A stretch of DNA of 64,000 nucleotides from the sequence record PV660452. One strand, written 5' to 3'. This document shows, piece by piece, positions 1,213-40,367 of this stretch. This DNA comes from Escherichia phage LF82-9. Position numbers and translations under genes: made by a program. The stretch's first letter is position 1. Every line of letters starts with the position of its first letter. The notes beneath the pieces are model-generated. The model did not search any database. It was not told where the DNA came from and was given only the letters and a program-made list of their open reading frames with translations.

Positions 1213-2901
1213 TTATGAAACAGTCATTACAGTAAATCGTCCAACTTTACTCATCTGAAGATGTTGTCCATAACGTTGAGGGTCATGGTCTCGATGAGAG
1301 ATAATGAACACGTTAGTATTTTGTAAACTTCCAAGAATGGTATCTATAGCCTTAACAGCTTCAGAATCTACAGCGCCGTCAAAAACCTCATCAAGAATCA
1401 ACGTGTTGATTTTAACACCAGAAACTTTTTCAGCAATATCTCGCCATGTAAACAACAATGCGATATCGATACGTGCCTTTTCACCTTGACTAAATGAAGC
1501 ATAACTAAAATCTTCACGACCACGTGATTTTATAGATTCATTGAATTCTTCGTCAATAGAAAACACATAATCAGCTTCCATGATTTTAAGGTAATGGTTA
1601 ATCTGCTTGTTGAACAGAGGCACATATTTTTTAATGATAGCACCTTTAATACCAGAATCTTTTAACATATCTGTTATAATACCACGATGGTATTTTTCAA
1701 GAACGTTATCCGATTTTGTTTTAATGATTTTATCAAGTTCTTTTTGAAGCAAAGCTATCTCATCGGCATGGTCGATAAATTCCGCCGAGGCTTGTTCTAT
1801 TGCAGCTTTAACTTTCTTAGCTTTATCAATAGTGGCAATCATTGCTTGTTTCTTGGTACGAATATCAGATGCAAGGTCCTGTTTAGTCTTAACATTAGCT
1901 CTATATTCGTCCACTAGGACACTCAGATTATCTCTGTGACAGGTAAGTTGCTCGAATGAGTGATTACATTCATGAAGCTTATCGGTAATCTTAGAGACAA
2001 TAGGATCACCCTGGTGCAACTGTGATGCACAAGTAGGACATGTGCCACCGTCATGATACATCTTAATAACTTTGTTGTATGAGTCGATTTTAGATTTAAT
2101 CAAGAATGCTTCTTGTCCTATCTTGTTGAATGCCTCAGTAGGGTCTTCATCAAGAACGATATTAAGTAGTCGCTCATTAGCTTCTTCGATTTCCGCTTTT
2201 AATGAACGAGCTTCTTTGGCTAGGTCGTCATACATATTCTGTAGACGCGCTACATTATCACCAGATAATTTCTTTTGACGTTCGATATTCTCGTTATAAA
2301 TCTTAATTTGTTGGATAACACCATCTTTCTTAGCATCGAGAACTTGTCCCTGGGAATTAAGTTCTCGAACTTGAGACTTATTGATTTTATCCATTTCAGC
2401 GAGTGTGCCGACTTCTAAAAGGTCTTCGACAAGTTTTCTACGAGCAGGGGTGCTAAGAGCCATGAAAGGGGTATACCCTGCCGTCCCAAGCACAACGATC
2501 TGTTTAAAAGACGCGTATGACATTCCGATGCTACGTTCAAATTCTTCTTGGAAGTCACGACTGCTGGCAGATTCATCGAGACGAACACCGTCAACGGAGA
2601 TTTCGAAAATATTGGGCTTTTGGCCTCGTTTAATGAAGTATTTTTTATCATCGAATTCCATCCAAAGCTCAACTAAGAGCTCTTTCTTGTTCGTGCTATT
2701 AATGATTTGTCCTTTCTTAACATCACGAAATGGTTTACCGAAAAGTCCGAAAGTAATGGCTTCTAACATCGTAGATTTACCACCGCCATTTTTACCAGTG
2801 ATTAATGTCTTTTGGACTTTATCTAATTGGATATCAATAGGATTCCCACCTACCGACATGATGTTTTGATAACGAACACGATTTAATTTAAATGATTTCA
2901 T
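1213..2901 (-). CDS. 46: Recombination endonuclease subunit gp46 (Rad50/SbcC-like ATPase)
   Basis: 562 aa; N-terminus MKSFKLNRVRYQNIMSVG and Walker A GKNGGGKST match T4 gp46; coiled-coil middle; C-terminal FIISH motif. Confidence 0.92.
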   Translation of the reverse strand: MKSFKLNRVRYQNIMSVGGNPIDIQLDKVQKTLITGKNGGGKSTMLEAITFGLFGKPFRDVKKGQIINSTNKKELLVELWMEFDDKKYFIKRGQKPNIFEISVDGVRLDESASSRDFQEEFERSIGMSYASFKQIVVLGTAGYTPFMALSTPARRKLVEDLLEVGTLAEMDKINKSQVRELNSQGQVLDAKKDGVIQQIKIYNENIERQKKLSGDNVARLQNMYDDLAKEARSLKAEIEEANERLLNIVLDEDPTEAFNKIGQEAFLIKSKIDSYNKVIKMYHDGGTCPTCASQLHQGDPIVSKITDKLHECNHSFEQLTCHRDNLSVLVDEYRANVKTKQDLASDIRTKKQAMIATIDKAKKVKAAIEQASAEFIDHADEIALLQKELDKIIKTKSDNVLEKYHRGIITDMLKDSGIKGAIIKKYVPLFNKQINHYLKIMEADYVFSIDEEFNESIKSRGREDFSYASFSQGEKARIDIALLFTWRDIAEKVSGVKINTLILDEVFDGAVDSEAVKAIDTILGSLQNTNVFIISHRDHDPQRYGQHLQMSKVGRFTVMTVS

Positions 2902-13552: not shown

Positions 13553-13794
13553 TGGTCAAATCCACCAATATGACTTCCATCAGGAGCAAATACTTGAGGC
13601 ATAGTCAATCCAACTTGTGATTCACGTCCTAGTTTATTCAGAAGCTCGTCAATTTTTTCTTCATCAAATACACCTTTCTCTGGCATAACATTAATGAATT
13701 CGAATGGCTGTTTCTTAACAGTCAGCAATCGTTTCGCATTATCACAATAAATGCATTTATGAATAGTAGAGTCATACCCGTACACTTTAAACAT
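13531..13794 (-). CDS. nrdC: Thioredoxin/glutaredoxin NrdC
   Basis: MFKVYGYDSTIHKCIYCDNAKRLL...MPQVFAPDGSHIGGFDQLREYFK matches T4 NrdC from memory; start set at the ATG giving 87 aa. Confidence 0.9.
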   Translation of the reverse strand: MFKVYGYDSTIHKCIYCDNAKRLLTVKKQPFEFINVMPEKGVFDEEKIDELLNKLGRESQVGLTMPQVFAPDGSHIGGFDQLREYFK

Positions 13795-14200
13795 TATTTT
13801 TCCTTTCATCGATTAAATATGCAATGCCAAATACAATACATGTAATAAAACCTGTGATACAGATAGAAACCAACAACACTGTACCAAAGAACCAAATCAA
13901 GTTATCTTTAGTAGTTTGTTTGATATCCATCTCACGAATTTCTATAGCTATCGTATCACCTTTATTCAGAAGCGTATAAAACGACGGTGATACACGCCTG
14001 TCAAAAACTCGTCCTTGCTCATCTTTATAGACTGCAATAAATTCTAATTTAGAATATTTTCCTGTAGATTGGCCTGAGATTAATTCCACTACCTCCACAG
14101 GAATTACTTTAGTTTCCATGTAAGTATTCTGACTGTTCCAAATGAATGGAATAACGGCAAAAACTAAAGCTGCGATAAAACAACGAAGGCTATATCTCAT
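13787..14200 (-). CDS. Hypothetical membrane protein (137 aa; N- and C-terminal hydrophobic segments)
   Basis: ORF track; hydrophobic stretches at both ends. Confidence 0.5.
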   Translation of the reverse strand: MRYSLRCFIAALVFAVIPFIWNSQNTYMETKVIPVEVVELISGQSTGKYSKLEFIAVYKDEQGRVFDRRVSPSFYTLLNKGDTIAIEIREMDIKQTTKDNLIWFFGTVLLVSICITGFITCIVFGIAYLIDERKNNV

Positions 14201-14505
14201 TATAATATTCTCTCAAATTTGTGGAAGCATTTACGGCATTTCAATTTCAAGTTATCAGTGGTCCAGTTAACCAGTTGGACTTGGATAGTTCCACATTCCG
14301 GGCATGGATGTTTTGCTGCTGATTTGGCAGCATTTTCACGTCGTTCAACCATTTTCATTATTTCGTTCCATGCTGGAGGAACGAACTCTTCTTCACCGTG
14401 GATTTTATCTCGCTGAACAAATTCAATCTTTGAACTATCGTCAATAAACTTAACCAAGCCATGATTAGTGCTCATATCAATATCCTCTAAAAGACGTAGT
14501 TTCAT
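14200..14505 (-). CDS. Hypothetical zinc-ribbon protein (101 aa)
   Basis: CPECG...CRKCFHKF four-cysteine motif at the C-terminus. Confidence 0.5.
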   Translation of the reverse strand: MKLRLLEDIDMSTNHGLVKFIDDSSKIEFVQRDKIHGEEEFVPPAWNEIMKMVERRENAAKSAAKHPCPECGTIQVQLVNWTTDNLKLKCRKCFHKFERIL

Positions 14506-38526: not shown

Positions 38527-38529
38527 CTA

Positions 38530-38556
38530 AAAAGCCCCAACCTTTCGGTCGGGGCT
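38530..38556 (-). terminator. Intrinsic terminator (GCCCC/GGGGC family)
   Basis: AAAAAGCCCCAACCTTTCGGTCGGGGC; U-run on the minus-strand RNA. Confidence 0.7.
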
Positions 38557-38560
38557 AAGC

Positions 38561-38760
38561 CTTGCGGCAACCTTGTCGGGGTTCCACCTGCTAAGGCAAG
38601 TGTTTGTACGAAACGCCGGGATTCGAACCCGGTTATTAAGCAGTTGACGCTACTCAATATTTTTAAAAGGCCATATCTCGACCATATCCGAACGTTCCGT
38701 CAAAAACGCTACTCGGCTTACGGCAAAGATATTTCCTCGAATCGATAATTCGGTGCGCCG
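38561..38760 (-). ncRNA. Candidate small stable RNA / tRNA-like remnant (T4 species-1/2 RNA region analogue)
   Basis: No plausible ORF; canonical tRNA T-arm CCGGGTTCGAATCCCGG at 38616-38632 (minus) without a full cloverleaf; ends at a terminator. Confidence 0.3.
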
Positions 38761-38843
38761 TTTCTGCTGTGATGTAAGAGGGCATCAATAAACGCAAAGA
38801 TTATTAACGCAATTCCTTACTCAGGGAACATCAGTCCGACGAC

Positions 38844-39398
38844 TTACCGGTAGCGACCCGGTTTCTCATTTGGTATTTCAAATTGTGTAGATTTAGTATC
38901 TAATTTTTTAACTATGGAACTTATGTCATGAAAGAAAAACCATTCACCATTTATATGGTCCTGATTATAAATGCTGTGCATATATTTTTCAAGTTCTACT
39001 GCATCCTGGGAATATCTAAATGATACTATTTTAAAACTTTTAAACGGTGAAAATGTATTTGCTGTTATAACTCTAACATCAGGTTCTATACTTCTTCCTA
39101 TTTTATAATAATTAGGATTTGTAGTATCTACCATTATGTATACGAAAGCCTGTCGATAGCTTTTTTCTATATCAAATTCATCTTTAAATTTCAAAAGATT
39201 TAGGGCGGCAGTCCTACAAAATACTTTCCATTTTGACAAGCGTTTGGCTTCAGTCATAGAAAAGAATTTTTTCTTATCTGTTATTTTAAGAAAAGCAACA
39301 TTTTCAATTAGTTCTTGTGTTATTTCAAAATTACCATGGTATATTAATCCAGCTTTTATAGCCAAATTAATTTGGTCCCAGTCTACATCACTTCTCAT
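38844..39398 (-). CDS. T5orf172/GIY-YIG-like domain protein (184 aa) adjacent to the tRNA cluster; possible seg-type endonuclease relative
   Basis: Motif FVYIMVDTTNPNYYKIGRS resembles the GIY...YIG/T5orf172 core, but in the middle of the protein. Confidence 0.4.
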   Translation of the reverse strand: MRSDVDWDQINLAIKAGLIYHGNFEITQELIENVAFLKITDKKKFFSMTEAKRLSKWKVFCRTAALNLLKFKDEFDIEKSYRQAFVYIMVDTTNPNYYKIGRSIEPDVRVITANTFSPFKSFKIVSFRYSQDAVELEKYMHSIYNQDHINGEWFFFHDISSIVKKLDTKSTQFEIPNEKPGRYR

Positions 39399-39419
39399 AA
39401 TATTATTCTCTCAATAATT

Positions 39420-39496
39420 TGGTCAGGGTGAAAGGATTCTAACCTTTAACCTGCGGTTTAGAGGACCGCTACTCTATACAATTGAGTTACACCCCG
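39420..39496 (-). tRNA. tRNA-Arg (anticodon UCU)
   Basis: Manual cloverleaf: anticodon stem GCGGT/ACCGC, loop CCUCUAA, T-arm AAAGG-TTAGAAT-CCTTT, encoded CCA. Confidence 0.7.
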
Positions 39497-39622
39497 TAAT
39501 TAGTTCACAGCAATACCTACTCCAACAATCAAGATGTCTTCACACGAAATTAAGAGAAGTGTGATCAGTTCAACCCCTATAATCGCGTCAAGTAGATATT
39601 AATGTGACAGTTGTCACAAGTT

Positions 39623-39697
39623 TGGCGGACATGCATGGATTCGAACCATGGACCAATTGATTAACAGTCAACTGCTCTACCACTGAGCTACACATCC
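39623..39697 (-). tRNA. tRNA-Asn (anticodon GUU)
   Basis: Manual fold: D-arm GCTCAGTGGTAGAGC, anticodon loop CUGUUAA, T-arm CATGG-TTCGAAT-CCATG, encoded CCA. Confidence 0.65.
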
Positions 39698-39701
39698 AAA
39701 T

Positions 39702-39788
39702 TGGTGGGGAGTGGTGGAGTCGAACCACCCGAGTCGCAATGACAATGAATTTACAGTCCACACCGCTACCTCTACGGGATAACTCCCC
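39702..39788 (-). tRNA. tRNA-Tyr (anticodon GUA), long variable arm
   Basis: 87 nt; acceptor GGGGAGT/ACTCCCC, anticodon loop CUGUAAA, T-arm GGTGG-TTCGACT-CCACC. Confidence 0.55.
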
Positions 39789-39794
39789 TTAATT

Positions 39795-39869
39795 TGGTGG
39801 CCCTGGGTGGAATTGAACCACCATCTGGCGATTATGAGTCGCTTGCTTGAACCTTCCAGCTACAGGGCC
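39795..39869 (-). tRNA. tRNA with CAU anticodon (Met or lysidine-modified Ile)
   Basis: Acceptor GGCCCTG/CAGGGCC, anticodon loop CUCAUAA, T-arm GGTGG-TTCAATT-CCACC, CCA encoded. Confidence 0.65.
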
Positions 39870-39870
39870 T

Positions 39871-39946
39871 TGGTGCTGATTAACGGAATCGAACCGCCGA
39901 CCTTCTCATTACAAGTGAGTTGCTCTACCTACTGAGCTAAATCAGC
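39871..39946 (-). tRNA. tRNA-Thr (anticodon UGU)
   Basis: GCTGATTTAGCTCAGTAGGTAGAGC...CUUGUAA...GGCGG-TTCGATT-CCGTT; matches T4 tRNA-Thr architecture. Confidence 0.8.
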
Positions 39947-39951
39947 AAAAC

Positions 39952-40041
39952 TGGCGGAGGCGATAGGATTTGAACCTATGAGTCGCCGGAGCGACTGCCG
40001 GTTTTCAAGACCGGTGCATTAAACCACTCTGCCACGCCTCC
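39952..40041 (-). tRNA. tRNA-Ser (anticodon UGA), long variable arm
   Basis: GGAGGCGTGGCAGAGTGGTTTAATGCACCGGTCTTGAAAACCGG... matches T4 tRNA-Ser. Confidence 0.85.
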
Positions 40042-40043
40042 AG

Positions 40044-40117
40044 TCTCCATACAAGGATTTGAACCTTGGACCTCCTGATCCCAAATCAGGCGCTCTACCA
40101 AACTGAGCTACACGGAG
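40044..40117 (-). tRNA. tRNA-Pro (anticodon UGG); 3-prime CCA not encoded
   Basis: Anticodon stem-loop CCTGA-TTTGGGA-TCAGG; T-arm CAAGG-TTCAAAT-CCTTG. Confidence 0.75.
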
Positions 40118-40127
40118 TAAATTAAAT

Positions 40128-40201
<74 letters not shown>

Positions 40202-40206
40202 AAATT

Positions 40207-40293
40207 TGGTGCGAGAAGTGGGACTCGAACCCACAAGGAAATCATTCCGCAGCATTTTAAGTGCTGTGCCTTTACCAATTTGACCATTCTCGC
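40207..40293 (-). tRNA. tRNA-Leu (anticodon UAA)
   Basis: GCGAGAATGGTCAAATTGGTAAAGGCACAGCACTTAAAATGCTGCGG...GGGTTCGAGTCCCACTTCTCGCACCA matches T4 tRNA-Leu. Confidence 0.88.
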
Positions 40294-40294
40294 G

Positions 40295-40367
40295 CTGGGA
40301 ATAAAGGACTCGAACCTTTGCATCCTGGAATCAAAATCCAGTGCCTTACCAACTTGGCTAATTCCCA
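40295..40367 (-). tRNA. tRNA-Gln (anticodon UUG); CCA not fully encoded
   Basis: TGGGAATTAGCCAAGTTGGTAAGGC...CTGGA-TTTTGAT-TCCAG...GGTTCGAGTCC resembles T4 tRNA-Gln. Confidence 0.8.

Follow-up and report, generated by a model that had tools for sequence, protein, structure and literature searches.

Homing endonucleases have their classical model system in the T4-like phages. One homing endonuclease gene (HEG) that targets tRNA genes is segB: its product cuts many T-even tRNA genes, including those for tRNA-Arg and tRNA-Asn, acts on the tRNA region of T2L and drives the replacement of neighbouring tRNA genes in related phages (PMC2330249), and it amplifies tRNA-Tyr to escape Septu (PMC13096335). 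HEGs of a different family, T5orf172, have been reported from ICP1, T5-like and other phages; for one member a DNA nuclease activity that depends on a glutamate has been shown, 87% of those described carry CapR/DUF723/DUF4397 Zn-finger DNA-binding repeats, and T4 is stated to have no T5orf172 gene (Barth et al. 2023, PMC10448857). Here we describe ORF184, an open reading frame (ORF) in the tRNA cluster of Escherichia phage LF82-9 (sequence record PV660452), of which a stretch of 64,000 nucleotides (nt), hereafter the window, was analysed. We consider ORF184 to be probably a free-standing homing endonuclease gene of the T5orf172 type that resides at the 3' boundary of the tRNA-Arg(UCU) gene of the phage. 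The presence of T5orf172 in a T-even tRNA cluster, the new N-terminal module that comes with it and the strict linkage to tRNA-Arg are previously unreported.

According to the ORF listing, ORF184 encodes 184 amino acids (aa), with an ATG start and a TAA stop. A preliminary description of the window, made from the letters alone, had seen a T5orf172/GIY-YIG-like motif in exactly this ORF and had placed it in the middle of the protein, unlike in classical Seg endonucleases; both points held. The peptide in question, FVYIMVDTTNPNYYKIGRS, makes up residues 85–103, in the middle to C-terminal part, and residues 85–155 match two Pfam models above their cut-offs: MUG113 (PF13455; E = 2.6e-9, 38 bits against a cut-off of 22.3) and T5orf172 (PF10544; E = 3.4e-6, 27.9 bits against 20). 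The classical GIY-YIG model PF01541 stays below threshold (E = 0.13, 13.1 bits against 22.6). From end to end, the protein matches PHROG 5032, a family of unknown function (E = 3e-59), and 2875 relatives were recovered when 1.8 billion representative proteins were searched with a profile.

Residue conservation was assessed in an alignment of 29 diverse full-length relatives, with identity down to 21%, every one of which matches both the MUG113 and the T5orf172 models. Y87, K99, G101, R109, P118, E137, E152 and W153 are invariant in 29/29, and ORF184 has the whole T5orf172/MUG113 core, namely the first-motif Tyr, K-I-G, Arg, Glu and G-E-W. The catalytic Arg and Glu, for which the preliminary description had suggested looking downstream of the motif, are present as R109 and E137; these are the residues expected in the two roles, since the spacings G101–R109 and E137–E152 equal G19–R27 and E75–N90 in I-TevI. 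Judged by these matches, ORF184 is a protein of the T5orf172 branch of the GIY-YIG superfamily, and the motif is no chance occurrence. NCBIfam gave no match to ORF184, and sequence searches of the PDB, with the single protein or with the 29-sequence profile, returned chance matches only (e.g. protein G).

The gene appears to be maintained as a protein-coding sequence. The ratio of non-synonymous to synonymous substitution rates (dN/dS) is 0.12 in the comparisons with VR7 and with AV110 and 0.10 in that with Muldoon, with low values for both domains; since dN/dS is about 0.1, ORF184 is under purifying selection, and its protein is functional and no decaying relic. Its guanine-plus-cytosine content is 29.9%, against 37.3% for the window. 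Truncated database versions of ORF184- and KP1079-type proteins were also seen, P0016 (68 aa) and P0019 (55 aa), with a frameshift after residue 60 and a premature stop as their defects; these are either decaying copies or sequencing errors. UniProt ascribes the 68-aa fragment to phage UFV-AREG1. A defence gene was considered as well: PADLOC gave weak domain-level matches only, to the T5orf172-containing candidates PD-Lambda-1 and PDC-S57, and ORF184 is not read as a defence gene because it is located in the tRNA operon of a lytic phage.

The preliminary description had also supposed a GIY-YIG fold, and one is predicted. The AlphaFold2 (AF2) model of ORF184 has a predicted local distance difference test score (pLDDT) of 91.6 and a predicted template modelling score (pTM) of 0.86; in it, residues 84–169 form a C-terminal domain with the topology beta-beta-alpha-beta-alpha-(beta-beta)-alpha. 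When the whole model was compared with the PDB, the best matches were the GIY-YIG proteins EF2693, Slx1 and BH0048 (E = 0.4–2). With a model of the domain only (pLDDT 71), the top 11 PDB matches were all GIY-YIG nucleases, including Slx1, EF2693 and At-HIGLE, and Slx1 reached a Foldseek probability of 0.97–0.99 (E = 0.03–0.06). Among predicted viral structures (BFVD), the best full-length matches were "T5 Orf172" proteins from T5-like phages and from the Aeromonas T4-like phage 44RR2.8t (template modelling (TM) score ~0.7, E = 1e-10 to 1e-8), followed by GIY-YIG nucleases (E ~1e-7). The C-terminal domain is thus predicted from the models to have a GIY-YIG-type fold, with a weak resemblance to Slx1 in the PDB.

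In front of the nuclease domain, AF2 places four helices at residues 7–15, 28–36, 42–47 and 50–74. The second half of this N-terminal domain is basic (isoelectric point 9.8), the domain is kept along its full length in the T5-like relatives, and ORF184 as a whole has a single Cys. We presume that the domain is a nucleic-acid recognition module. A match of residues 1–79 to Castor1_N in the Pfam scan was discarded as a chance match.

The attachment of ORF184 to tRNA-Arg was followed across 13 T4-like loci: those of the window, of phages REP2, VR7, VR26, AV110, KpV477, Muldoon and PS2, and of the metagenome contigs of P0003, P0005, P0009 and P0010 (two contigs for the last). In 13 of 13, a tRNA-Arg(UCU) gene or a remnant of one ends 15–23 nt before the ATG of the ORF184 homolog, with protein identity to ORF184 going down to 54%. 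The window gene lies beside the tRNA genes, as had been noted in the preliminary description, with the tRNA-Arg(UCU) gene ending 21 nt upstream of the ATG. From the CCA end onwards, the leader AATT.TGAGA.ATAA.A.TATG is kept in the five junctions compared (window, VR7, AV110, KpV477 and Muldoon). In the P0010 lineage the upstream tRNA-Arg is a 5'-truncated remnant and the ORF is intact. Such a 5'-truncated tRNA-Arg stands at positions 1121–1182 of contig ERZ14207130 NODE_4, where the end of the preceding ORF takes the place of the 5' strand of the acceptor; ARAGORN and Rfam did not detect this truncated tRNA-Arg, and the nuclease ORF there is intact. What follows the ORF184 homologs varies (rnaD, ORF116, tRNA-Thr or another ORF), and the homologs read on into it to the first stop, which explains their variable, low-confidence C-terminal tail.

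A comparable attachment is seen outside the T4-like phages. The closest T5-like ortholog (RN29, ~40% identity) precedes tRNA-Arg(UCU) and has its stop, a TAA, in the anticodon loop of that tRNA, BF23 paralogs run into tRNA-Lys and tRNA-Asn, and many tblastn matches overlap annotated tRNA-Arg, -Lys, -Asn or -Thr genes. T5orf172 paralogs seem to pair with particular tRNA genes. A T4-like metagenome contig, SRR13308523_3652, holds an ORF184 homolog after tRNA-Arg and also a second T5orf172 gene (2467–2949) that starts 15 nt after tRNA-Lys(UUU). In BF23 (AJ604530), a 784-nt "stable RNA X" is annotated at 13651–14434, directly upstream of tRNA-Arg(UCU), which is the position of the ORF184 ortholog in RN29. 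The profile search found no ORF in this region at E <= 1e-3; "stable RNA X" may be a degenerate ORF184-type copy or the mRNA of a divergent one.

At its 3' end, ORF184 runs into the gene of a stable RNA. Its slot lies between tRNA-Arg(UCU) and rnaD, which in T4 are separated by 1 nt (T4 order: tRNA-Ile, segB, tRNA-Arg, rnaD, rnaC). By alignment, the first 26–27 nt of rnaD are the last nine codons and the stop codon of ORF184. The C-terminal codons shared with phage Aplg8 could have been taken for a common protein tail; this was rejected, the shared sequence being the 5' end of rnaD. The 3' junction reads GAAATACCAAATGAGAAACCGGG in the window, and the intact tRNA-Arg/rnaD junction of T4 reads GGGATACCA-A-ATGAGAAACCGGG; the window junction keeps ATACCAAATGAGAAACC, which is identical to that of T4 at 17 of 18 positions. 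The end of ORF184 retains 6 nt resembling the 3' end of a T4-type tRNA-Arg, which suggests insertion at or just inside that end. These 6 nt are no proof of insertion, however, because the same bases encode a conserved Ile-Pro of ORF184.

The window belongs to a T4-like phage of the genus Tequatrovirus, with 99% identity to Escherichia phage REP2 over the 2.1 kb around ORF184, and ~1000 T-even-type records match parts of it. Presence/absence polymorphism in related phages, for which the preliminary description had suggested looking, is clear: only 10 of 1016 matching related records cover the ORF184 locus. A search at >=90% identity recovered the protein, at 92–100% identity, in 15 phage records, which comprise about ten Tequatroviruses and the Gapriverviruses VR7, VR26 and ESCO10. 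Scanning IMG/VR with the alignment of close orthologs gave three matches only, all of them isolates already known. In close non-carriers the flanks are 97–98% identical and ORF116 is in the slot. For example, Aplg8, which has the common allele type, has flanks identical to those of the window around an interior of 529 bp that cannot be aligned with the 638 bp of the window; this interior holds a tRNA-His, another tRNA-Arg and the 116-aa ORF. ORF116 lies at 1967–2317 (minus strand) of the Aplg8 record (KT184308), where it is unannotated, in the same slot as window positions 38868–39419. It belongs to PHROG 3355 and occurs in 424 phage records, with no Pfam domain and no nuclease signature.

The tRNA-Arg allele of the window, taken at >=98.8% identity, is present in exactly the 15 records that carry ORF184 and in no others, and because the allele is confined to these same records, ORF184 and its tRNA-Arg can be regarded as one cassette. 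Other occupants of the position are known. In Mosigvirus AV110, tRNA-Arg is followed by an ORF184 homolog (78% identical) and then by ORF116, and Gaprivervirus VR20, a relative of VR7 at 96–97%, has an unrelated 79-aa ORF between tRNA-Arg and rnaD. The slot after tRNA-Arg therefore has at least four states, which are empty (T4), ORF116, ORF184 and ORF79 (VR20), and is a hot spot for small accessory genes.

To assess lateral movement, the entire window was compared by local blastn with 50 kb of Gaprivervirus VR7. The tract that holds the terminator, rnaC, rnaD, ORF184 and tRNA-Arg is 93.9% identical to VR7 over 971 bp, against 66–79% in the other syntenic segments, and the homology to VR7 begins at the 5' end of the tRNA-Arg gene. 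At the level of sequence, this is evidence of lateral transfer between genera with co-conversion of the flanks. It lends support to the proposal of the preliminary description that the gene is a mobile-element relative promoting the exchange of tRNA regions between phages; DNA cleavage by ORF184, its target site and its homing are what we infer from the observations above.

The tRNA-Arg that accompanies ORF184 is itself unusual. U33 is near-universal in tRNAs, and the ORF184-linked tRNA-Arg(UCU) has C33 instead (anticodon loop CCUCUAA), together with the T-loop UUAGAAU and a D-loop without GG. The alleles of the window, VR7 and AV110 all have C33, and the differences between their stems are compensatory, so that the linked tRNA-Arg appears to be under selection. 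The related alleles of VR20 and SHFML-11, which come without ORF184, have U33. We had considered the odd T-loop and D-loop as specific to carriers and rejected this, as both also occur in the VR20 and SHFML-11 alleles; among the five alleles compared (window, VR7, AV110, VR20 and SHFML-11), only C33 is specific to those linked to ORF184. The C33 tRNA-Arg may be a variant resistant to anticodon nucleases. One could go further and imagine a two-gene mobile cassette, in which a homing endonuclease specific for tRNA-Arg(UCU) spreads a tRNA-Arg variant, with C33 and the altered T-loop and D-loop, that withstands a tRNA-targeting defence of the host, with the T5-family paralogs at tRNA-Lys and tRNA-Asn doing likewise for other tRNAs. 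We rate this extension as decidedly unlikely; if true, it would make a selfish nuclease the vehicle for an anti-defence tRNA.

If ORF184 is a homing endonuclease gene, its cycle could run as follows. Transcription would yield ORF184 as part of the tRNA/rnaD/rnaC precursor, and translation would begin from a Shine-Dalgarno site of its own, situated between the tRNA and the ATG. When a carrier and a related phage without ORF184 infect the same cell, the nuclease would cut the tRNA-Arg/rnaD region of the non-carrier; repair of the double-strand break, with the carrier genome as the template, would then bring in ORF184 together with its neighbouring tRNA-Arg allele, so that the copied cassette replaces the resident one, which in most Tequatroviruses consists of tRNA-His, tRNA-Arg and ORF116. 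Because ORF184 overlaps the 5' end of rnaD, processing of the precursor would remove its last codons and stop codon, and processing at this site probably keeps ORF184 expression low. The same negative control has been proposed for segB and for the F-Tfl enzymes of T5 (PMC2330249).

Several points weigh against homing. The E-values of the PDB fold matches are weak (0.03–0.6); the ORF184 model, with its pTM of 0.86, looks compact, whereas GIY-YIG homing enzymes typically consist of two tethered modules; for the N-terminal domain, Pfam, the PDB and NCBIfam gave no match to any known domain, a DNA-binding fold included; and the protein, with its one Cys, has none of the CapR/DUF723/DUF4397 Zn-finger repeats in Pfam. 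Moreover, a useful function that has been conserved would also explain the long-term purifying selection and the strict adjacency to tRNA-Arg in several genera. ORF184 could then be a domesticated nuclease that benefits the phage, either by excluding the markers of co-infecting phages or, in the manner of SegB, through recombination or amplification of tRNA genes under host tRNA attack. The dN/dS of ~0.1 over deep divergence, with the gene intact from 100% to 54% identity, is what such a role would leave behind, and so are the tRNA-Arg found next to it in 13/13 loci and the C33 anticodon loop of that tRNA; the amplification of tRNA-Tyr by SegB against Septu provides a precedent (PMC13096335). 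Yet ORF184 is rare in Tequatroviruses (~1%) and readily replaced by ORF116, and is for this reason taken to be dispensable, and truncated copies exist (P0016 and P0019). Domestication also requires the same nuclease activity and hence overlaps with the homing interpretation; as an explanation in its own right we think it possible but unlikely.

General recombination could also account for the movement of the cassette, as could SegB or another endonuclease that cleaves tRNA genes. Taken to its conclusion, this would make ORF184 a passive passenger, shuffled along with its cassette and with a role unrelated to its own mobility. It is true that ORF116 and ORF79, neither of them a nuclease, vary alike in the same slot, and that SegB cuts tRNA-Arg and tRNA-Asn genes (PMC2330249), of which the window carries that tRNA-Asn gene. 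But the conserved catalytic residues and the nuclease fold would be left needing another explanation, and the paralogs in the unrelated T5-like phages, each at its own tRNA, form a pattern that fits site-specific elements better; we regard the passenger as very unlikely. A role other than DNA cleavage can also be imagined. The gene is always found within tRNA transcription units and overlaps structured RNA genes, the UniProt names of its relatives read "DNA-binding domain", and T5orf172 was originally described as a DNA-binding domain, so that the protein might be an RNA-directed or non-catalytic nucleic-acid binder acting on tRNA or stable-RNA precursors, for example in the processing or regulation of tRNA-Arg or rnaD. 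This is highly improbable in our view: no residue of the GIY-YIG catalytic set varies, the protein has DNA nucleases as its closest neighbours in structure, one T5orf172 protein has a glutamate-dependent DNA nuclease activity (PMC10448857), and the lineage in which tRNA-Arg is 5'-truncated and the ORF intact argues that ORF184 is independent of the upstream tRNA. Homing at the tRNA-Arg boundary is the reading we retain as probable.

Table 1. Features of the ORF184 locus, with positions in the window
Feature	Position	Strand	Basis or remark
ORF184, T5orf172/MUG113-type (GIY-YIG superfamily) putative nuclease gene	38844–39398	-	ORF listing; Pfam and PHROG; orthologs; dN/dS; GC content
C-terminal nuclease domain (predicted), aa 84–170	38889–39149	-	AF2; domain-only model; PDB fold search; 29-member alignment
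N-terminal four-helix domain (predicted), aa 1–80	39159–39398	-	AF2 secondary structure; charge analysis
ORF184 leader, 21 nt, with Shine-Dalgarno-like GAGAG	39399–39419	-	Starts directly after the CCA end of tRNA-Arg
tRNA-Arg(UCU), allele linked to ORF184	39420–39496	-	ARAGORN and Rfam, 60.7 bits
Replacement cassette, 638 bp (tRNA-Arg allele and ORF184)	38868–39505	-	Pairwise alignment with Aplg8
VR7-like tract (terminator, rnaC, rnaD, ORF184, tRNA-Arg)	38529–39497	-	blastn; alignment
rnaD (species 2 stable RNA)	~38752–38870	-	Coordinates transferred from Aplg8 and T4 annotations by alignment
rnaC (species 1 stable RNA)	~38607–38745	-	Annotation transfer
Intrinsic terminator ending the tRNA transcription unit	38533–38556	-	Terminator scan; downstream of rnaC

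The coordinates of rnaC and rnaD come from annotation transfer because Rfam has no model for either RNA. Ten tRNA genes lie on the strand of ORF184, nine of them, besides tRNA-Arg(UCU), at 39623–40367. The one at 39795–39869 (minus strand) is called tRNA-Met(CAT) by ARAGORN, and its counterpart in T4 and REP2 is annotated as tRNA-Ile; in such a gene the CAU anticodon is read as Ile after lysidine modification. The spacer of 126 nt between tRNA-Asn and tRNA-Arg (39497–39622, minus strand) recurs nearly base for base in Aplg8, where it separates tRNA-Asn from tRNA-His. It is predicted to form a long hairpin (-31.6 kcal/mol), and ARAGORN and Rfam found no tRNA or known RNA family in it; the spacer could be a further small stable RNA, or else a signal for processing. 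Within the 3' part of ORF184, at 38964–38992 (minus strand), a sigma-70-like promoter match (TTGAAA-17-TATAAT, 11/12) is directed towards rnaD and rnaC. It was rejected as a promoter, as matches of this kind are no more numerous in the region than expected from shuffling, and it is probably an effect of AT-richness.

In T4-like phages, members of the T5orf172 family have been annotated only as "hypothetical protein". With ORF184, a T5orf172 gene with a presumed new recognition domain would occupy a further mobile slot, the second, of the T-even tRNA cluster; the gene keeps to tRNA-Arg(UCU) in several genera, as T5-like relatives do to tRNA genes of their own, and it travels with its own tRNA allele. 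It would thereby offer a possible route for the exchange of phage tRNA repertoires, which are known to counter tRNA-cleaving defences. If site-specific, ORF184 would be, at ~175 aa, a very small nuclease of the GIY-YIG type, and its targeting module would be novel. It is in any case a concrete and easily testable case of a candidate homing enzyme directed to tRNA genes.

Among the closest described systems are the T5orf172 ORFs in the tRNA regions of T5 and BF23. These ORFs (BF23 ORF trn 2.12.1 and trn 2.8, and the RN29 gp078 type) have the same full-length two-domain architecture, with 28–40% identity to ORF184, a BFVD TM score of ~0.7 and membership in PHROG 5032, and like ORF184 they lie within tRNA clusters with their 3' ends running into the next RNA gene. 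The VR7 authors annotated their ortholog as "similar to BF23 ORF172c". The two groups differ in orientation towards the tRNA, since the T5-like ortholog stands upstream of tRNA-Arg(UCU) and ends inside it, whereas the T4-like ORF184 stands directly downstream. The T5orf172 HEGs of vibriophage ICP1 have in common with ORF184 the catalytic domain family, a patchy distribution and a position at the boundaries of genetic exchange between related phages (PMC10448857). They are found near essential protein-coding genes, however, whereas ORF184 has its home at a tRNA gene, one Cys and a novel helical N-terminal domain. The Slx1/URI-type GIY-YIG nucleases (PDB 6SEH, 6SEI and 4XLG), the best structural matches of the catalytic domain, are related at the level of the fold only, with 14–16% sequence identity between Slx1 and ORF184; Slx1 is a eukaryotic, structure-specific nuclease that has a RING domain and Slx4 as its partner.

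A further comparison is with SegB of T4. Both it and ORF184 are encoded by free-standing nuclease or nuclease-like genes in the same tRNA/rnaD/rnaC transcription unit, and in both the end of the ORF abuts or overlaps the 5' end of a processed RNA. By sequence, ORF184 is nevertheless no Seg protein: hhalign detected no similarity between its family profile and T4 SegB (probability 0.1%, E = 0.66), and SegB has an N-terminal nuclease domain of the classical PF01541 type, whereas ORF184 carries its domain at residues 84–170 and falls below the PF01541 threshold. The activity of SegB is proven; that of ORF184 is one we infer. Even so, the pattern of the ORF184 cassette suggests, by analogy, the same outcome as the replacement of tRNA genes driven by SegB.

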